DNA of 20,000 nucleotides from an uncultured virus (IMG/VR IMGVR_UViG_3300037400_006954) (lineage: Duplodnaviria > Heunggongvirae > Uroviricota > Caudoviricetes). The notes beneath the pieces are model-generated. The model saw only the letters and a program-made list of their open reading frames with translations. It did no database searches and was not told the origin of the DNA. The stretch is from the IMG/VR virus record IMGVR_UViG_3300037400_006954; one strand, written 5' to 3'. Shown here piece after piece: positions 5,558 to 14,950 of this stretch. Numbering within the stretch: position 1 is the first letter of the stretch; every line of letters begins with the position of its first letter. Position numbers and translations under genes: made by a program.

Positions 5558-7257
5558 ACAGCCTCCTTGTCTCCGCCGTCCTTGTTGTCGTTGTTGTCCT
5601 TGTCGTCCTTGCCGCCCTGGATGTCGATGGTGGTCGAGTCGTCGTCGATGACGACCATGCCGTCATCGTCGGTCTCGAAACCGTCCAGCGGGTTTACGTC
5701 GTCGCACGTCGCGACGTTGTCCAGCGCTCCGGCCGCATCCGTGTCGCCGATCGTCCCGGCTCCGGTGTCCGTGGCGCCATCAGCATCCGTGCTGGCGCCT
5801 CCGTCGTCTCCGGTGTCCTTTGCGGCGGCATACGAGTAGTACTCGCCTACGCAGTCGTTGATGTAGCACAGCAGCATCTGCAGTGCGTCTGCGGAGTCGT
5901 CGGGCGAGAGCGTGTCGAACCCGACCAGGTCCTCGACCATGAACTCGACCATCTCGTCCTCGTCTCTGCTTAGCACGAAGCACTTGGAGACCTTGTCCGT
6001 TTCGGTGGTCTTGAAGTCCATCTTCAGGTTGAGCAGCCTGGCCAGCGCGTTGACGCGCTTGCACGTCTCCTTTATGCCGAGGTTGACGGCCCATTCCGTG
6101 GGCACTACCGCCCTCGGAGCCTGTTCGTGGCACATGGTGTACTCGTACAGCACGGCCACGTTGCTTGCGAACTTTTCGACGTAATTCGTGACGGCCTTCT
6201 CGTCGAATCCCTCGTCCTTGGACTTGGCCAGTTCCTCAAACGCCTCGCACAGGCCTGCGGTCGCGACCTCGTCGAAGCACTTCGGAAGGATGCCGCGAAT
6301 TATCTTCTCGACTTCCTTCTCCGTCTCCGTTTCCGAGTATATGTATCTCCCCGTGATCGCGTTCTCGAGGACCATATGCGCAAGAGCGAGCTGGCACACG
6401 CCTTTAGCACCCGCCAGCTTGAGTAGCATTTTCCCGTCAAAGTCCGAGAATTTTTGCATTTTTCCATCCTGCTTTGATTTTCTTGATTTTTTGCTTCCGG
6501 CTTGCTTTTTCCAGCCTTGTCCGCTGTAGTATCCTTCGTATCCGGCTCCGTAGAGCTCGCCGTCGTATCCGTCGTAGCCGCCGTACGATCCGCAGTACCC
6601 TCCGTATGAGCCGCCACGAAACCCGGCGGCACCGGCCGCCCCACCTCCCTTCCAGGAAGTGACAGAGGTGACCTTGTATCCGGAGTTGGATGCGTAGAAC
6701 GCGACCTCGCCGTTTTCCTTTCTGTCATATTCGCTCACCCATGTGCCGTACCGTATCACTCGGTTGTCGGGCATGATGAAGCAGAACTTGTTCGAATAAC
6801 CGCAGAAGTGTTCGACCAGGTTGTCGAGATCCTCGTGGAACTTCCCGTCCTTGTACGCCTCTTTGCCGAGGCCCCTGTAGTACGGGATGAATATCTTCCT
6901 GAAGAAGAACTCGGAATCGGTCCCTTCCCACTTTACCCTCTTCATCATCGAGTCCAGGTCGGTCAGCGTCATGTTGTGCATGAACAGGATGTTGTCCGAT
7001 TCCCAGCCGTGGACGTTTTCAAGGCTCTTGGGCCCCCTCGACGGAATCCTGGCGTGCATGACGAATGCGTCTTCGTCCTTCACCTTTTCGTCGAAGAATC
7101 CGATGGCCTCGTTGCTGTCCAGCGTCCTTATGGTGTCCCGCGTGCCATCAGGCCTCAGGGCCGCCATGAAGAATCCGGCAGAGTTTACCCGCATGGACTC
7201 AAGCACCTCTTCGCGCTTGATGTGCCGCTTCTTCGCGGCCGTGCAGATTATACACAT
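5554..7257 (-). CDS. class II (Ntn) glutamine amidotransferase domain protein with long C-terminal extension (567 aa)
   Basis: True start is inside the 803-aa track ORF at MCIIC (catalytic Cys2, AAAGGA RBS). Motifs NSAGF, MHARIPS, ENVHGW, FMHNM and TDSE follow the GATase-II pattern. Confidence 0.85.
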   Translation of the reverse strand: MCIICTAAKKRHIKREEVLESMRVNSAGFFMAALRPDGTRDTIRTLDSNEAIGFFDEKVKDEDAFVMHARIPSRGPKSLENVHGWESDNILFMHNMTLTDLDSMMKRVKWEGTDSEFFFRKIFIPYYRGLGKEAYKDGKFHEDLDNLVEHFCGYSNKFCFIMPDNRVIRYGTWVSEYDRKENGEVAFYASNSGYKVTSVTSWKGGGAAGAAGFRGGSYGGYCGSYGGYDGYDGELYGAGYEGYYSGQGWKKQAGSKKSRKSKQDGKMQKFSDFDGKMLLKLAGAKGVCQLALAHMVLENAITGRYIYSETETEKEVEKIIRGILPKCFDEVATAGLCEAFEELAKSKDEGFDEKAVTNYVEKFASNVAVLYEYTMCHEQAPRAVVPTEWAVNLGIKETCKRVNALARLLNLKMDFKTTETDKVSKCFVLSRDEDEMVEFMVEDLVGFDTLSPDDSADALQMLLCYINDCVGEYYSYAAAKDTGDDGGASTDADGATDTGAGTIGDTDAAGALDNVATCDDVNPLDGFETDDDGMVVIDDDSTTIDIQGGKDDKDNNDNKDGGDKEAV

Positions 7258-8464: not shown

Positions 8465-8920
8465 CTAGAATGCGTTTCGTATACCGTTTTCGTCAGTGAA
8501 GCTCGCGCTGCCAGAAGTGGCGCCCGGCCTTCCGTTGTCGGACATGTTGTCTATCTCGTCGGACGTCATCTTGGACGTCTCCACCGACAGTTCCCACCTG
8601 GACCTCGACGCCCCGTAGCACACTACCTTGCAGTCGTGCGTCATCGCCGAGTTGATGAACGACAGAAGCATCCCCAGCGAGTCGGTGATGCAGCTGCCGC
8701 GCCACCCGCTGAGGGGCACGGTCTGCCTTACGCTGCCGTCCTTGACGGCGTCGAAGTACACGACGTCTCCGTCGAGCATTCCGGCGATGGCCTGGACTAT
8801 CCTCTGCTTGTAGTCACCGTATTCCCTGAATACGGTGGACATCCTGTGCCCGCGGCCGAGCGGTTTGCCCACCGGGGTGAGGTGGAGCTTCACCACCTCG
8901 GAATCCCATTTCACAGTCAT
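8465..8920 (-). CDS. hypothetical protein (151 aa, MTVKWDSEVV...)
   Basis: Start re-assigned to the ATG overlapping the upstream TGA (ATGA) with an AAGGAG RBS; the longer track ORF overlaps the upstream gene out of frame. Confidence 0.75.
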   Translation of the reverse strand: MTVKWDSEVVKLHLTPVGKPLGRGHRMSTVFREYGDYKQRIVQAIAGMLDGDVVYFDAVKDGSVRQTVPLSGWRGSCITDSLGMLLSFINSAMTHDCKVVCYGASRSRWELSVETSKMTSDEIDNMSDNGRPGATSGSASFTDENGIRNAF

Positions 8921-9957
8921 ATGCCTAACTCCTTGAGTTGTTTCTCTATTTCCTTGTTGCTTCCCCGCCTTGCGAGGTATGTCGAAAGCGCAGACGCCTG
9001 CTTGATCTTCGACTTGACTTCGGCGACACCCGCCTTGAGCCCGCCCTCGACGTACTTGACGGCCTCCAGGACCCTGCCGCAGTTCTCTATGTAGTCCTTG
9101 AACACCACGGCGAGCACGTTCGCCGCGACGGTGTCCAGGAACGCCTTCGAGGGCCTGTAGAACTTGGCGCCTCTCCTTGCGTACGCCACCAGGAACTTGC
9201 ACTGTACCTTCACGTCGTGGTCGTAGCGCTCGCCGGAGCCGTCGAAGTGCTCCTTCCTGTACGGCTTCATGCTCAGGAACTCCTCGATGGAGACCGCCGG
9301 CATGTCCGCATCCAGGTCCACGCCGGACACCGTGCACGGCAGGAACCCCGCCAGGTTCCTTGGGCGGCCCGCGTCGCTGGAATGCTCGCTGTTGTAGGCG
9401 CTTACGATGCATGCGTTTGCCGCGAGCCTAGCCGCCATGGGGCTGGACCTGTCGCCGCACCGTACGACCGGCCTGTTGCCGCGTATCACGGGGCCGTTCT
9501 CGCCGACGAAGAACATCGAGTTCTTGATGTTTCCGAACAGCACGTCCACTGCGTTCTTGTGCATGTGCTCCAGGAAGAACATCTGCCCGTACTTGCTCAT
9601 GTCGTCACCGACCGGAAGCGGGTAGAACCTGCAGTACCGGACCTTGGGCAGGAGCGGTTCCTCGTCTATCCTGTTCCCCGTAAACTGGAGCAGGCCGGAC
9701 GACGCGTCGAAGTCGCTCGACATGACGTCGTTCACGAACAGTATCCTGGTGTGCCCCGTGTCCTTAGTCAGCATGTCGCGCACCGTCTCGGGCCTGTTGT
9801 CGGCCCTACCCGTGTATCCGCACGATATGCCGAGCTTGGACAGGGTGTTCACCGCCAGGTGAAGCCTGTTCGCCCCGCTCGAGACCTCCGAAGGAACGAC
9901 TATCAGGTCGCCTACCTGAAGCCTCGTAACGTCGCTTATCTCGCTGAAATTGTGCAT
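8917..9957 (-). CDS. hypothetical protein (346 aa)
   Basis: AAGGAG RBS, strong third-position G/C bias, helical or coiled-coil-like C-terminus. Confidence 0.85.
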   Translation of the reverse strand: MHNFSEISDVTRLQVGDLIVVPSEVSSGANRLHLAVNTLSKLGISCGYTGRADNRPETVRDMLTKDTGHTRILFVNDVMSSDFDASSGLLQFTGNRIDEEPLLPKVRYCRFYPLPVGDDMSKYGQMFFLEHMHKNAVDVLFGNIKNSMFFVGENGPVIRGNRPVVRCGDRSSPMAARLAANACIVSAYNSEHSSDAGRPRNLAGFLPCTVSGVDLDADMPAVSIEEFLSMKPYRKEHFDGSGERYDHDVKVQCKFLVAYARRGAKFYRPSKAFLDTVAANVLAVVFKDYIENCGRVLEAVKYVEGGLKAGVAEVKSKIKQASALSTYLARRGSNKEIEKQLKELGI

Positions 9958-9986
9958 AAGCTACTCCTTCTAACTTTGTAACATGT

Positions 9987-10019
9987 AAAAAGAAGGGCCC
10001 CGTTTTTCGGGCGGGGCCC
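9987..10019 (-). terminator. intrinsic terminator after the 171-aa gene
   Basis: GGGCCCCG (9995-10002)/CGGGGCCC (10012-10019) stem followed by TTCTTTTT on the minus strand. Confidence 0.8.
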
Positions 10020-10040
10020 CCCTTGCACAGCCGACAGGGC

Positions 10041-10556
10041 TTAGTCCTCGTCGCCCTCGGCGACAACCTTGCCGTTCTCCTTGAGGTTCTTCGCGATGAC
10101 GCGGAGGAACACGCGGGTGCCCTCGTCGTCCTTGCGGACGATCTGGTACTGGCCGTCGTTGCCGGGAGCGGCCTCGCACATGCGGTCGGCGCATGCCTCG
10201 ACGCGGTCGCACTTCTCGACGTCGGTCGTGAAGATGTCGACGATGTCGGGGTTCTCCGCGTTCTTCGCCGTCCAGCAGTCGAAGAACTTGAAGGACGCGG
10301 CCGACTTGGTGTTGTCGACCAGCTTGACGATCACCTCGATCTCGCCGACCTTCTTGACGGTCTGGAGAGTGGCGCCCGTCTCGTCTCCGAGCACGATCTT
10401 GCCCTTCTTGTCGCCGTCAGGGCCGAAACCCTCGTCCTCGGTGAGGAAGAGGCGCCCGAACTTGCGGCGGTCGATCGTACCCGTGTACGATGCTGTGGTC
10501 TTGCCCAGGACCTCGACCTCGGGGTACTGGGGCTTCTCGGTGTACTTCATCTTCAT
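10041..10556 (-). CDS. hypothetical protein (171 aa, MKMKYTEKPQ...), probably highly expressed
   Basis: A/C-rich enhancer plus AAGGAA RBS, almost exclusively C/G-ending codons, own terminator. Confidence 0.85.
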   Translation of the reverse strand: MKMKYTEKPQYPEVEVLGKTTASYTGTIDRRKFGRLFLTEDEGFGPDGDKKGKIVLGDETGATLQTVKKVGEIEVIVKLVDNTKSAASFKFFDCWTAKNAENPDIVDIFTTDVEKCDRVEACADRMCEAAPGNDGQYQIVRKDDEGTRVFLRVIAKNLKENGKVVAEGDED

Positions 10557-10569
10557 GATGATGTTTTCC

Positions 10570-10890
10570 TTTTTTGTTGTTCTTGTTTGTGTTGCGCAAC
10601 ACACCCCATGTGGAATGTGCTTCTACGACTGCCCACGCGGACAGCCGTAAATGGCAGCCGGAGTCTTTTACGAACGGATAGCTCCTCCGACAGACGCACC
10701 GACACCAGTCCCCTCGCGGGCGCCGTTCGACCTGTGCGTCACTTTCGTGCATTCGGGCACTACAGCCTTCGGGGAGCACGCATCCCCCTGCATACAGCTC
10801 ATTCCGCGCCCAGCCCCGACATCATCTGTCCGAGGGGGAATCAAACCCCGGGCCTCTGGCGTGTTGCCCTCCGTACGCAGTGTAAATCCC
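10570..10890 (-). ncRNA. candidate structured RNA or long 5' leader (~320 nt)
   Basis: T-loop-like hairpin GGGG-TTTGATT-CCCC (10835-10849); helices GACGCAC/GTGCGTC (10693-10699/10734-10740) and CGGCTGCC/GGCAGTCG (10653-10660/10626-10633); palindrome at 10588-10603. Confidence 0.5.
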
Positions 10891-10891
10891 G

Positions 10892-11053
10892 TTACGAGCC
10901 CCAGAACAGGATCCTGTCCCGCTCCAGCCTCCTTATCTCCTTTACCCTGTCCTGGTCCGTCGTGACCGCGATGGACTTCGAGGTGGTCACCTCGACTACG
11001 CCTATCATGGCCGGGCACTTTGCCGGCCTGTCGTCTGCTGCCGTGTTCTTCAT
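10892..11053 (-). CDS. small hypothetical protein (53 aa, MKNTAADDRPAK...)
   Basis: AAAGGAAGGA RBS; C/G-ending codons unlike the flanking non-coding DNA. Confidence 0.6.
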   Translation of the reverse strand: MKNTAADDRPAKCPAMIGVVEVTTSKSIAVTTDQDRVKEIRRLERDRILFWGS

Positions 11054-11084
11054 GTCTGTCCTTCCTTTCGTATGTAAAGAAAAC

Positions 11085-11820
11085 ATCTACAGCTCCCGGC
11101 GTGTTCAAATACGCTCTTACTTCCAAGCCAATCCCCCTTTCGATTCCGCCCACGAACCCGCGAAGGCGCGTGGACATAACGCGGACCGCTCCCGCCGGCT
11201 TAGTCAGCCCCCGCAGGGTCAGACGCTCACCGACGGCGTTGGTCTCGCTCTGGATACTCGAAGAGACATCACTCCAGCGTGAAGGAAGCTTGAATGGCAA
11301 GGAGCCTCATGGGCAGGGCTGTAGACGTAAAATCAGAGACAGGAACTCGACCTTTGTTATCCACTGTATCCCGCGGACTCCGGAGCGTCCCGCCTCAAGG
11401 CCATGGCGTAGGGCGTCTGCTCGACGGAGTGGGTTCCTGCATGAGCGCGGTTTTCCGGACCCGCGTGCGCGAGTCCTGTTCCGAGGCGGAGGTGTCCCGA
11501 CGTCGTGAACCTCCTGTTCAGTTATACAGGCGCTGAGCGAGGAGGTCCTCACCTCCAGGCCGTCCCACGGGTTCCTGAACATGGATTGCCTAGGCGGAGA
11601 TTTTGGCTGAGGCGCGCATGGGCGCCGTATAGGTGGTAATCTCCAATAAACACCGGTGTCTCCACGTCTTCCCCGTTTTCGCATGTGCACTATGCTATTC
11701 GGATCGTACGTTTCTCCACCGCCATTTTGTTTTACCGGCCGCAATTGGACGCTGCGCGAATAACCGCGAGGTCCGCCGGCTTGCGGCACGTCGGCCGGCG
11801 CGAAAGAGGCGCGGCCTGAA
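11085..11820 (-). ncRNA. candidate large structured ncRNA, unit 2 (~735 nt)
   Basis: No credible ORF. Nested helices such as GTCTACAGC/GCTGTAGAT (11318-11326/11085-11093), GGAGATT/AATCTCC (11638-11644/11596-11602) and GGAGGT-GAGG-ACCTCC (11541-11556). Confidence 0.55.
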
Positions 11821-12733
11821 ATTGAAACAGGGCGCGCCACGGTATTACCCGGACGCGCCCATACCCGACTCCCACGGGTCCGTGTCTCGTTTCCACTGTC
11901 ATGCCCTGACGTTGGGCTTCACGGTAGGTCCTGCCTACTGTCATACAGCATGCCAGAAGTATCCATATCCTGTGATCCTGGCGGAAGACGTGCAGGCCGT
12001 GGGCGGGTCAGTTACTCCCGAGCCAGACATGCATAGGACTTCCGGTTGTTGATCCATTTTCAGTATGGGCCACGGCATTCGCGGCTGTCCGCGGTACGTT
12101 AACACTTTTCGTCTTGAAACGAACGCACAACAAAAGTCATCCGCTGAGGGAACGCGTTGGTTTTTCTTCAGCCAGACGGTTTCCCGGCTGGTAGGCCTGG
12201 TCCTTGGCATCGGACATCGGCACTGCGGCACAACGTGGCTGCACTCCGCACCTAGGGGCGGCGCAATGGTCTATACTGGATCGCACTCGTCGTTCGGCCT
12301 TACTGACGGACTGGATAACCGTGTACCGTTCTCAAGGTGTACTGGGACTTTCTAGATCGCCGAGACCAGCTCTGATTGTTTACAAGTTTTCGAGCGTTCC
12401 GAATAAGTTATATCCGGGCCTGGCCAGGTCCCACCCGTGGCCTCTTCGCTCGGGACCGCAGCAAGCTGCGGTTTCGCATCGTAGACTTCAAAATTTCTGC
12501 AGGAGGCGTACTTGCATATACGTAATAGCTTTCCCGATCCTGATCTGCGTACTGATTGACATCTGCCCGTGCTACTTCGGACCTTTGGTCCCCGCGTCAT
12601 CTGCTCAAGGAAGGGTTGACCCCAGACCGCCATGCGGATTCAAACCGCTGCAGATCAGACTCTGGCAGTTCGCTCCAAGAGCTAAATATCAAAATCAGCA
12701 AGACGCTAAATTGAAACAGGAACTTTTTCCTGT
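11821..12733 (-). ncRNA. candidate large structured ncRNA, unit 1 (~900 nt)
   Basis: Begins just after a TATAAT promoter; no credible ORF; 9-bp helix CTGATCTGC/GCAGATCAG (12650-12658/12540-12548); T-loop-like GCGG-TTTGAAT-CCGC (12634-12648); G(CUUG)C tetraloop hairpin (12455-12472); GAAA tetraloop (12177-12186). Confidence 0.6.
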
Positions 12734-12738
12734 ACTAC

Positions 12739-12767
12739 ATTATAGCCTAAATAAGCCCAAAATTAAC
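12739..12767 (-). promoter_or_regulatory. promoter driving the non-coding region
   Basis: GTTAAT-N17-TATAAT on the minus strand in an AT-rich patch; same layout as 13332-13360. Confidence 0.65.
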
Positions 12768-12783
12768 ACGTTTAAGGGCGTTT

Positions 12784-13113
12784 TCAGCCGTTTTTACGCT
12801 GAAGCCAGTCTGTCAGACGGCTGTCTGCGGCGGCATATTCCTGAATGGCCCGAGCCGTGGAGGACTCGCTTGGGACGTATCCGGGCTTGTGAACGATGTC
12901 GTTCCGGATGTTCTTGCCGTCCCTCAGCACGCTCATGAGCTCCATGATGCGGAGCTTTATGGCCGCCTTCCTGTAGGAGTCTCCGTCCCTCCCAAAGCCA
13001 AGTCCGGCAAGCCTGTTCGTAAGACGCGCGTCCGCCTGGACGACGTCATACATGCGGCGCAGGTCTGCGTCGCTGGGTCTTGTCTCCTGCGCTAGCTTTA
13101 GAAATCCATTCAT
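12784..13113 (-). CDS. hypothetical protein (109 aa), probably leaderless
   Basis: ATG lies 6 nt after a -10 box, with no SD sequence. Confidence 0.75.
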   Translation of the reverse strand: MNGFLKLAQETRPSDADLRRMYDVVQADARLTNRLAGLGFGRDGDSYRKAAIKLRIMELMSVLRDGKNIRNDIVHKPGYVPSESSTARAIQEYAAADSRLTDWLQRKNG

Positions 13114-13119
13114 GCCAAT

Positions 13120-13148
13120 ATGTTAGCATATAATGGCTAAAAACGCAA
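13120..13148 (-). promoter_or_regulatory. sigma70-like promoter (extended -10)
   Basis: TTGCGT-N17-TAACAT with TG just upstream of the -10. Confidence 0.6.
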
Positions 13149-13157
13149 GTACAGCGT

Positions 13158-13298
13158 TAGGGGCACTTGCGGGACTTGAACCCGCATCTCCCGAGGCCAA
13201 GCCATTAGATCTTCGCCCTCGGATTTCCTACCGACGACTCTGACCCTGGTGGAATCGAACCACCACGCCCCAGGCACATTGCGTTATGCTATTGTGCC
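13158..13298 (-). ncRNA. tRNA-like RNA with two T-arms (non-canonical or pseudo-tRNA)
   Basis: TGGTGG-TTCGATT-CCACCA (13247-13265) and GCGGG-TTCAAGT-CCCGC (13169-13185); closing helix GGGGCGT/GTGCCCC; no standard cloverleaf and no CCA. Confidence 0.6.
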
Positions 13299-13331
13299 AT
13301 TGAAAAAAAAAGGACCTTGTGTCCTCAATAT

Positions 13332-13360
13332 ATTATAGCGGCAATATGCCTGTTTTTAAC
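13332..13360 (-). promoter_or_regulatory. promoter driving the tRNA-like element
   Basis: GTTAAA-N17-TATAAT immediately after the GT gene stop. Confidence 0.65.
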
Positions 13361-14950
13361 TTACTTTATGTAATCCCGCCACCGTATGTTGTCCTTTACG
13401 GCATGGTACAGCTTGTCCTTTACTATAAACGAAAAGTCCCTTATCTTGAATACATCGTACGCCGGTACGCATTCGTCCCTGTAGATGTCCCTGCACGACA
13501 GCTTGTTGACGGCCATGGTCACCCACAAGGTCTCGAAAAACGTAGGCTGCAGGGCTTCTGACTCCGAATAGAACTTCTCCAGCATGTCGAGCATCTTCCT
13601 GGACAGCCTGGACATGCAGTTTACGGACTTGAAAGACTCGTTCCACATGCTGACCCGCCTTGAGCAGTTCCACCAGCACCACTCCACGTCGCAGCTTCTC
13701 GGCGTGACTCTTGTGCAGATTAAGTCGTGTCCCAGATCGTTCATTCTCGAGAAGAACGACTTCCAGTCGCCGGAGTAGCAGACGTCGTATTCCACGTACC
13801 ACACGTAGTCGTATTCCGGGTGCTCCTTTGCGAGTGCCATGGTGACGTAGTTTGGCGCCTGGTACTGCAGGGTCATTCCGAAGTCGGCCGGGGCTATGTA
13901 CTTTCTGGAATGAAGCACTTCCTCGTCGGTGAGAAGCCTGTAGTTTATGTCCTTGGGTATCTCTACGTCTCCAGGGCTCTTCTTGTTGTATACCCATATG
14001 ACGTCTATCCCCATGCCCTCCACGTCCTTGATAAGCTTCCTGCAGCGCCAGATCGTCTCGTCGTTTACGATGTGGCTTATGTACAGGGCCAGCTGACGGC
14101 TTCCATGCGCATTGCCGACAGGTTCCATGGTGCGACAGGCGGCGATATTGTCCCTATAGCCCAGCGAGATCGCGTCTCCGCGCTGATAGCCCTTCCCGTC
14201 ACCGGCGTAGTGCCGGATCAGCGGATTGTCATCCTTCGCTCGCGCTATAACGTTCAGCCGGGGATCTGCGCCGGCGTATACGTCCATGAACGCGTTTATC
14301 ACGTCCTGGTCTAGGAGTCCGAACATGCCATGGAGCTCGATGTCCCAGAACAGCTTCATGCGTTCCACGTAGAACTCGTCCCCGTTGCGCCGTATTGCCT
14401 CCATGTTGAAGAGAACCACGCCGGCATTTATGTATCTCTTGCGTTCCGTACCCCATTTTGACCAGTATGGGCCCATGGCCAGTACAGTGTCCGGGAATAC
14501 GTCGTTCTTCACTATTACCGGCGTCCTGTCTCCAAATGACCCTATGTCCGGTACGCCGGCCACCTCATGGTCTCCGATGTCGATGTCGTCTATGGCCTTC
14601 CTGGCGTCTTCTGACATGACGAGCGTATCGGTATCCAGGTACAGTACGCGATCGTATTCCTTTAACTCGTCGGCAACGGGTATGGCTAGTCTGTACAGAC
14701 TCGCAAAAGGCGTATGGCGGCACCAGTTTGCCGCGAAGAACCCGAATCTCCACAGGTATTTAGTCGGGCATACCGTGGTTACGCCGTATATTGCCGGAGG
14801 GAAGTGGTTTTCCGTAAATACAAATATGGGCACGTCTTCCCCTATGAACTTCCTGACGGACCACACGGACATCGCGAGCCTGTCGTAGTCTCCGCCGTTG
14901 GATGCATAGCATACCGCTAGGCCCTTACGTGTCTTCTGCTGTCTCTGCAT
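13361..14950 (-). CDS. glycosyltransferase family 8 domain fused to DUF3405-like domain (529 aa)
   Basis: Start re-assigned to MQRQQK (GGAGG RBS). GT8 motifs LYRLAIP, RVLYLDTD, YINAGVVLFN, DQDVIN and HYAG; C-terminal YDYVWYVEYDVCYSGDW resembles DUF3405. Confidence 0.85.
   Translation of the reverse strand: MQRQQKTRKGLAVCYASNGGDYDRLAMSVWSVRKFIGEDVPIFVFTENHFPPAIYGVTTVCPTKYLWRFGFFAANWCRHTPFASLYRLAIPVADELKEYDRVLYLDTDTLVMSEDARKAIDDIDIGDHEVAGVPDIGSFGDRTPVIVKNDVFPDTVLAMGPYWSKWGTERKRYINAGVVLFNMEAIRRNGDEFYVERMKLFWDIELHGMFGLLDQDVINAFMDVYAGADPRLNVIARAKDDNPLIRHYAGDGKGYQRGDAISLGYRDNIAACRTMEPVGNAHGSRQLALYISHIVNDETIWRCRKLIKDVEGMGIDVIWVYNKKSPGDVEIPKDINYRLLTDEEVLHSRKYIAPADFGMTLQYQAPNYVTMALAKEHPEYDYVWYVEYDVCYSGDWKSFFSRMNDLGHDLICTRVTPRSCDVEWCWWNCSRRVSMWNESFKSVNCMSRLSRKMLDMLEKFYSESEALQPTFFETLWVTMAVNKLSCRDIYRDECVPAYDVFKIRDFSFIVKDKLYHAVKDNIRWRDYIK

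Follow-up and report, generated by a model that had tools for sequence, protein, structure and literature searches.

A probable transcribed and essentially non-coding locus in an uncultivated tailed phage of the cattle gut, with a conserved RNA fold upstream of a micro-gene

To our knowledge, the large non-coding RNAs of phages are few (GOLLD and ROOL), potentially very abundant, and of unknown function. According to the available sections of PMC12286853, ROOL was first found in the cow rumen and can reach the abundance of 16S rRNA, both RNAs often lie near tRNA islands, and profiles for GOLLD, ROOL and OLE are held in Rfam. A different kind of intergenic element is represented by the PeSLs of T4-type phages (Arbiol et al., Comeau et al.), which the available parts of PMC2839356 and PMC4122927 describe as promoter plus stem-loop units flanking variable cargo; five subclasses are distinguished, including one with the stem-loop downstream of the -10 box. 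This study focused on a stretch of 20,000 nt (the window) from the IMG/VR record IMGVR_UViG_3300037400_006954, an uncultured virus of the Caudoviricetes, and within it on a locus of about 2.2 kb (10570-12767, minus strand) that an initial annotation, made by eye, had proposed to specify either one giant, promoter-driven RNA or a tandem of smaller ones. The reading favoured here, as probable rather than assured, is that an uncultivated tailed phage of the cattle gut or rumen carries here a locus that is transcribed and codes for almost no protein, which gives rise to at least two separate RNAs and combines a lineage-specific cassette (RNA-A) with a structured leader (in the 3' part of RNA-B) upstream of a gene of 53 aa. 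No description of an RNA from this locus was found in the literature searched, as far as its available parts extend. The features are collected in Table 1.

One finding concerns the 3' 360 nt of RNA-B, which covariation in three lineages shows to be, to judge from the aligned sequences, a new conserved structured RNA of the leader type. Two metagenome contigs, L001 and L002, were aligned to the window by nhmmer (window 11458-10640 to L002, E 1.4e-29; 11445-10501 to L001, E 1.1e-23), and both also lack codon periodicity in the aligned region. With window 11470-11087, L002 355-765 and L001 20-500 as input, RNAalifold returned a consensus fold of about 360 nt with two domains and 69 pairs. Paired cells make up 92.2% of this fold, compared with 79.9% in shuffles, and 30 of the 69 pairs are changed on both sides; shuffles give 12.6 such pairs, none of the 500 attaining 30, and sliding the partners leaves 3-5. 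The first domain, a three-way junction that is predicted from each of the three sequences alone, has 98.8% of its cells paired and 8 of 27 pairs changed on both sides (3.3 in shuffles, with 0 of 500 reaching 8, and 0-1 with slid partners). Compensatory changes are also carried by helices 5, 6, 8 and 13 of the second domain, and helix 5, the closing helix, is one of the long-range helices first noticed by eye; it covaries in the relatives and is recovered by single-sequence minimum free energy (MFE) folding. Such compensatory changes are explained by an RNA and not by coding sequence or a DNA site. The fold further contains 23 G-U cells that become mismatches on the other strand, a count biased by the fact that the fold was predicted on the minus strand. 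A covariance model of the junction (R1) finds exactly three copies in 49.5 kb of sequence, and none in G001, a related 98-kb record.

Some 12 nt separate the end of the second domain from the Shine-Dalgarno box that precedes the small open reading frame (ORF), which is itself a conserved gene. Its product is 53 aa long in the window (57 aa for L001, 51 aa for L002), with a common C-terminus ending in DRILFW or DRILYW, and the codons of this C-terminal part differ synonymously at third positions, which is codon-type conservation. One database homologue, P0016, shares 91% identity. The initial annotation had held that codon-type conservation in place of compensatory changes would speak against an RNA; such conservation was indeed found, but it is confined to the 53-aa ORF. 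Because the 53-aa ORF is a conserved gene, the 3' third of the locus is better described as a structured leader plus a trailer than as part of a giant RNA. The trailer includes a block of 78% identity with L002, where 11 of 43 pairs are changed on both sides, a figure that comes from two sequences and is suggestive only; within it, the stem of the T-loop-like hairpin 10849-10835 shows a G-C to U-A change in L002. A three-way fold of the region after the ORF that included L001 was misleading and was discarded, as L001 is coding there. In both relatives the small ORF is followed, ahead of the 171-aa gene, by one more gene, of 80-100 aa and homologous between the two (L001 672-974, L002 1232-1474); the window is without it, and the module is therefore plastic.

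The arrangement resembles that of structured cis leaders, with a multi-helix fold upstream of a ribosome-binding site, compensatory changes, and the same small gene behind it: all three lineages (3/3) that possess the small ORF carry the fold upstream of it, once per genome. It differs in that about 360 nt is far larger than most such leaders, and in having no Rfam match. An expression platform common to all three sequences, such as an alternative terminator or a pairing that masks the Shine-Dalgarno box, was not seen by eye.

Outside the small gene, the locus is non-coding. All genes of the window lie on the minus strand, with a GC content at third codon positions (GC3) of 0.75-0.96 and a periodicity (maximum minus minimum) of 0.35-0.6 in 300-nt segments. 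The minus strand of 12783-10557 is the sole long stretch of the window without codon periodicity: GC3 periodicity is only 0.01-0.15 across 12750-11100 and 10900-10600, the collapse being bounded by a 109-aa ORF (13113-12784) and the 171-aa gene and interrupted at about 11090-10806, which is also the sole outstanding patch in a 150-nt scan of 12800-10557. The 53-aa ORF in this patch has a GC3 of 0.87, compared with 0.47-0.67 in the seven other listed ORFs preceded by a Shine-Dalgarno box outside it. Minus-strand ORFs of 210, 177, 96 and 93 aa can be drawn mechanically; they are without periodicity, family match or conservation, and these four, the longest on that strand, had no Pfam match. A hidden protein or pseudogene was rejected after a Pfam scan in which none of the 52 six-frame, stop-to-stop segments reached the cut-off, and the only rows were two weak ones on the plus strand (E 0.046 and 0.084). 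Of 23 indels seen in pairwise comparison of the conserved part, only 5 have a length divisible by 3, and 10300-13500 contains no iterons and no tandem repeats. The early description of a single plausible 53-aa ORF in an otherwise gap-free gene array was thus correct, as was the observation that high GC is kept (0.52-0.61 across the locus).

Table 1. Features of the locus and its surroundings, with the contigs from four RNA libraries (window coordinates)
Feature	Position	Strand	Remarks
Second promoter with downstream elements	13360-13160	-	promoter 13360-13332, hairpin with a run of nine T 13326-13302, tRNA-like fold 13272-13160
Second promoter, GTTAA-N17-TATAAT	13360-13332	-	precedes a separate tRNA-like fold
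Promoter-like GTTAAT-N17-TATAAT	12767-12739	-	-10 box perfect, -35 box weak
Hairpin of 7 pairs straight after the -10 box, U-rich tail	12733-12708	-	listed as terminator-like
RNA-A, non-coding	~12666-11885 (0.78 kb)	-	single contigs of 735-782 nt in RNA libraries
GC-rich hairpin (GGGCGCG...CGCGCCC), then copy 2 of the 13-nt repeat (11831-11819)	11860-11819	-	
RNA-B, 5' half, non-coding	11810-11456	-	in RNA-library contigs; unalignable to L002
Three-way junction, 27 pairs	11444-11333	-	covariation; invariant 3' tail CTCTGATTT
Second domain, closing helix 11326-11318/11093-11085	11326-11085	-	covariation; closing helix recovered by single-sequence MFE
Small gene, 53 aa	11053-10892	-	ATG start, preceded by AAAGGAAGG; GC3 0.87
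Non-coding trailer, small ORF to 171-aa gene (287 nt)	10891-10605	-	common to L002 only; holds T-loop-like hairpin 10849-10835
171-aa gene, downstream	10556-10041	-	GC3 up to 0.96; anchor for relatives
RNA-A contigs	X11 11930-12664; X18 11885-12666; X19 11886-12073 and 12069-12658; X16 12042-12451		
RNA-B contigs, X11 and X16	X11 11361-11810, 11060-11362; X16 11541-11770, 11093-11307		
RNA-B contigs, X18 and X19	X18 11233-11558, 11533-11751; X19 11408-11596		

Evidence for transcription comes from assembled sequencing runs. At least 20 runs from 13 studies contain part of 10557-13360, and six of these are RNA libraries; where an organism is recorded, it is a metagenome of the cattle gut, of the gut or of unspecified origin, and for several runs the label is missing. 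Some DNA runs contain only 34-59% of the words of the stretch. From four studies, one RNA run each (X11, X16, X18 and X19) was mapped, as assemblies only, onto 8900-14000, and all four give contigs within 11060-12666. These contigs fall into separate pieces, RNA-A and RNA-B, and the locus looks more like a tandem of RNAs than like one giant molecule. The alternative suggested at the outset, a tandem of about 900, 735 and 320 nt, comes near to what is seen: one piece at 12666-11885, another at 11810-11060, and behind them some 290 nt of conserved 3' sequence. In three studies the contigs terminate, with no loose end, at 12664, 12666 and 12658, and in two at 11885 and 11886, whereas the DNA assembly continues through all of these places; the coincidence is a weak hint of defined RNA ends. 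In X18, sequencing-adapter letters, which we take to be those of the read-1 adapter, stand immediately before 11885 and 11233, and with the usual stranded chemistry their orientation would fit, as a weak hint, an RNA of the minus strand whose 3' ends are these two positions. The real ends of RNA-A may lie further out, the 5' end perhaps near 12732 and the 3' end perhaps near 11819. Contig depth, a poor measure of level, is 49.9, 52.7, 19 and 3.8-6.1 for RNA-A and 8.9 and 8.46 for the 171-aa gene. Three stretches (8900-9241, 13175-14000 and 11811-11884) are uncovered in all four runs, which is evidence neither of silence nor of a break, and 9242-10096 and 12833-13174 are uncovered in three of the four, which likewise does not indicate silence.

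The locus matches no RNA family of Rfam. Rfam 15 was searched with cmscan, giving no match in the window at the gathering score, and at E<=10 on 10300-13500, 11850-12700 and 11050-11850 only chance-level rows far below that score (E 0.37-7.6). There was no row for GOLLD, ROOL, OLE, group I or II introns, RNase P, HEARO or riboswitches in the scanned stretches, none for the tRNA, tmRNA and tRNA-Sec models over the locus, and none at E<=1, ROOL included, in the contigs L001-L003. [quoted passage not shown] The likeness to GOLLD and ROOL lies in size, as phage non-coding RNAs of 0.6-0.8 kb, and in a locus with a conserved 3' part, an unconserved 5' part and a tRNA-like element 450 nt upstream. 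The differences are that their Rfam models are unmatched, that the window is without a bona fide tRNA, that RNA-A lacks covariation and folding support, and that a small gene for a protein is joined to the conserved part. A GOLLD- or ROOL-like role for RNA-A is possible, with no test supporting it.

ARAGORN at default settings reports no tRNA or tmRNA gene in the window. What is present are hairpins of the T-arm type. The word GGTTYRANTCC, a pattern designed after the sites had been seen, has four copies where 0.20 are expected (equalled in none of 200 shuffles), always on the minus strand in non-coding sequence. The hairpins have stems of 4-5 pairs and loops of 7 nt; a usual T-loop has C at its third position, and those of the locus have U. 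They resemble tRNA modules in stem, loop and location on the transcribed strand, and differ from them in having no cloverleaf: 12648-12634 and 10849-10835 have no acceptor, D or anticodon arm alongside. A tRNA-like element, 13272-13160, lies 450 nt upstream, in the same RNA-gene neighbourhood and outside the main locus. It folds into four arms with an acceptor-like closing stem and T-arm-like hairpins in the first and last arm (z -2.84). A tRNA-Ser call at 13298-13160 from the ARAGORN intron search was rejected as poor, having a 2-pair D stem and acceptor-stem mismatches, and the other calls at relaxed settings were implausible.

The promoter placed at the start of the locus by the initial annotation, GTTAAT-N17-TATAAT, is present, and was missed by a consensus scan because its -35 box matches at only 2 of 6 positions. 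The window has two sites of the form GTTAA-N16-19-TATAAT, where 0.01 would be expected and none of 200 shuffles yields as many; both are minus-strand and intergenic, and 5-8 nt behind each of them begins a short hairpin whose tail is rich in T. In the hairpin element at 12733-12708, positions 12720-12708 are the first copy of an exact 13-nt direct repeat, CCTGTTTCAATTT, which brackets RNA-A, each copy forming the tail of a hairpin (2 matches, with up to 2 mismatches allowed, against 0.23 expected); the invariant 3' tail of the three-way junction resembles it. The hairpin at 11860-11819 could be taken for a terminator, for a mark of processing or for the border of a cassette. A paralogy of RNA-A and RNA-B was considered and rejected, the 13-nt repeat being all that they have in common. 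The repeat is absent from the relatives L001-L004 and no empty-site genome was found; at the position of RNA-A, L002 carries unrelated sequence.

In the 20 kb examined of a 136-kb contig there are thus two promoter plus hairpin units and one hairpin-only unit. The resemblance to PeSLs, which is architectural and drawn by analogy, consists in a sigma-70-like promoter and a downstream stem-loop that form one intergenic unit and recur, and in the bracketing of RNA-A by identical 13-nt tails. In contrast to PeSLs, the hairpin sequences differ among themselves, the cargo would be a non-coding RNA and not an orphan ORF, and the phage is not known to be T4-like.

From these parts a tentative scheme can be drawn. 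Host RNA polymerase would initiate at GTTAAT-N17-TATAAT, near 12732, and proceed leftwards with the genes, and the two marks that combine a hairpin with CCUGUUUCAAUUU (12733-12708 and 11860-11819) could act as partial terminators or processing sites. The fold of about 360 nt may act in cis, either stabilising the mRNA of the small and 171-aa genes or gating translation. RNA-A and the 5' half of RNA-B appear to be lineage-specific and to have been inserted as a cassette between composite promoter/terminator marks; insertion is suggested by the identical 13-nt flanks, together with the fact that L002 has no homologous sequence. For RNA-A, an action in trans is the most likely. It could be speculated that the T-loop-type hairpin, together with a tRNA-like element behind a promoter of the same type, reflects tRNA mimicry or docking to tRNA-binding factors.

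A number of results weigh against this reading, above all where the 5' 1.3 kb (RNA-A plus the 5' half of RNA-B) is concerned, for which no evidence of structure or conservation was found. RNA-A does contain a 5' domain, with 12665-12650/12548-12533 as its closing helix, the T-loop-like hairpin 12648-12634, and the hairpins with CUUG (12472-12455) and GAAA (12186-12177) loops; indeed, all six motifs that had been picked out by eye exist at the positions given for them, the others being the hairpin 10849-10835 and the helices 12658-12650/12548-12540 and 11326-11318/11093-11085. The label hairpin-dense does not survive comparison with shuffled controls, however, as folding is no better than in shuffles, an outcome that the initial annotation had itself listed as refuting: the MFE of RNA-A (782 nt) has a z of +0.68 with 25 shuffles and +0.27 with 15, its entropy has a z of +0.64, and its share of well-defined bases is below that of shuffles. 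On the minus strand of 10570-12767 the 200-nt sliding MFE z runs from -1.95 to +1.2, as in the coding flanks, and the sole outlier (z -3.83) overlaps the start of the 171-aa gene. Folding energy is a weak test in this GC-rich genome, because the covariation-supported junction fails it too, with a z of +0.39 for the copy in the window; the lower-GC homologues give -2.69 and -1.53. Of the 27 strain variants listed for RNA-A, 18 fall in MFE pairs, and 9 of these keep the pair and 9 break it.

Homologues of RNA-A or of 11810-11456 were found in no collection searched. For RNA-A these comprised phage GenBank records, plasmids, GTDB (where the junction pattern was used) and G001, the whole record of which gave BLAST words of at most 20 nt. 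Exact and degenerate patterns from the locus had no match in four scans of IMG/VR. One further pattern scan of IMG/VR returned 49 loci, all judged to be chance, and the five of them with weak HMM rows proved to be one AT-rich coding sequence. L002 1-377 does not align with window 11810-11456, the homology beginning at about 11458. The conserved part has its own limits, in that the covariation comes from three sequences and the structure was derived by RNAalifold from the same alignment, with helices 9-12 in poorly aligned columns. Moreover, two further relatives of the 171-aa gene, L003 and L004, have coding sequence upstream of it and no copy of the junction, so that the conserved RNA is not tied to the 171-aa gene. 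Finally, neither the strand nor the level nor the true ends of an RNA can be read from assembled contigs, the runs were picked for containing the locus, and RNA libraries may include carried-over DNA.

Several other explanations have to be weighed against a locus of separate RNAs. The entire 2.2 kb might be a single 5' leader of the operon of the small ORF and the 171-aa gene, with RNA-A and RNA-B as its stabler fragments and nothing acting in trans. There is, after all, one convincing promoter (12767-12739), and the consensus scan found no promoter-like site between 12739 and either gene; the parts are co-linear on one strand, the conserved fold abuts the ribosome-binding site, and RNA-A shows no sign of stable structure. 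A phage leader of 1.7 kb would nevertheless be exceptional, between RNA-A and RNA-B stands a strong hairpin whose tail is U-rich, and the contig ends that coincide across studies (12658-12666 and 11885/11886) point, weakly, the same way. Since the sequence upstream of the fold is unrelated in L002, only about 360 nt behaves as a conserved leader, and we regard the single-leader explanation as unlikely. We are just as doubtful of a far bolder proposal, that RNA-A (about 0.8 kb) and RNA-B (about 0.6-0.75 kb) are the first members of new classes of large, very abundant non-coding phage RNAs, functional counterparts of GOLLD and ROOL, that employ T-loop modules to mimic tRNA or to self-assemble and pass from phage to phage as non-coding cassettes with promoter/terminator marks at their borders.

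If only the leader and the small gene matter, the 5' 1.3 kb would be decayed filler without function, such as a degenerate tRNA island or an old cassette, and would owe its transcription solely to the strong promoter in front of it. The lack of any homologue, of excess folding and of a variant bias toward kept pairs is what such filler would give, and remnants of tRNA genes could be seen in the four T-arm-like words in non-coding DNA on the coding strand, in the non-canonical tRNA-like fold 13272-13160, and in the tRNA-Met that lies about 7 kb upstream of the 171-aa gene copy in G001. Yet the T-arm-like hairpins are without the other tRNA arms, one of them (10849-10835) is kept in L002 with a compensatory change, the GC content is that of the genome, and contigs of 735-782 nt in four studies differ at only 2-24 places; decay is, on balance, a distinctly improbable account. 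Least credible, and in our view very improbable, is protein coding by way of another code, frameshifts or odd codon usage, or a DNA element (an origin or a packaging site) whose presence in RNA libraries is carry-over. The minus-strand ORFs of 210 and 177 aa, and the DNA that RNA libraries may contain, leave some room for it; against it are the lack of periodicity in any frame and of a family match in all six, indels that are mostly not multiples of 3, the compensatory changes explained by RNA, and the absence of iterons and tandem repeats from 10300-13500.

The phage context assumed at the outset is plausible, and the window is likely, from its gene content, to be part of a phage genome: one ORF matches an SbcD-like nuclease family of PHROG, and a relative of the 171-aa protein is encoded by G001, the IMG/VR record of L004 (98 kb, rated 100% complete). 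In G001, 39 of 47 candidate ORFs were scanned, the other eight being overlapping shadows or longer than 5000 aa, and 15 of the 39 match PHROG, including a terminase large subunit, a DNA polymerase, a helicase, an exonuclease and a reverse transcriptase; the terminase came from PHROG, as the Pfam families PF03237 and PF05065 had no hit there. The reverse transcriptase lies beside a Hoc-like or minor-tail protein (L064 11566-15984 and L065 1661-19999, minus strand), an arrangement resembling a diversity-generating retroelement, and the record further contains one open frame that exceeds 6000 aa.

The relatives were traced through the 171-aa protein, a profile of which selected three of 80 pattern matches among metagenome contigs (L001-L003), one of 40 in IMG/VR (L004) and none of 45 in GTDB genomes. 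Other searches with neighbouring proteins gave nothing, neither single-protein scans of IMG/VR nor tblastn of the 890-aa and 171-aa proteins against phages. In a collection of 5.8 billion proteins, the 171-aa protein has 14 relatives at 46-72% identity (P0002-P0015), one of which is encoded on a 128-kb contig; the contig of the window measures 136,079 bases. The AlphaFold2 model has a pLDDT of 86.2 and a pTM of 0.81, Foldseek found no match for it in PDB or BFVD (best E 0.12), and there was no VIA match above Z 4.8; going by this model, the protein, perhaps one that the phage expresses at a high level, may have a new fold.

Elsewhere in the window, 17950-13361 (minus strand) holds three consecutive genes, each with a glycosyltransferase family 8 domain, of which the first two ORFs overlap by about 200 nt. 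The long ORFs 8465-9412 and 8917-9957 (minus strand) overlap by about 500 nt in different frames, and the gene boundaries there are doubtful because across 9001-9800 the periodicity speaks for a single frame. At 5578-6613, inside an 803-aa ORF, several short tandem repeats keep the reading frame (periods 9, 12 and 21), which suggests a repetitive structural or fibre-like protein as its putative product.

Each independent large non-coding RNA of a phage narrows the roles that such RNAs could have. A new fold some 360 nt long, which has covariation behind it and is physically linked to a conserved micro-gene, would be a handle for both genetics and biochemistry. RNA-A, at 0.8 kb and apparently unstructured by computation, implies either that energy tests fail for RNAs of GC-rich phages or that the phage makes an unstructured sponge or decoy. 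The locus also adds non-coding cargo to what may be found between promoter and terminator marks, and in this way bears on how the accessory modules of phages are shuffled.

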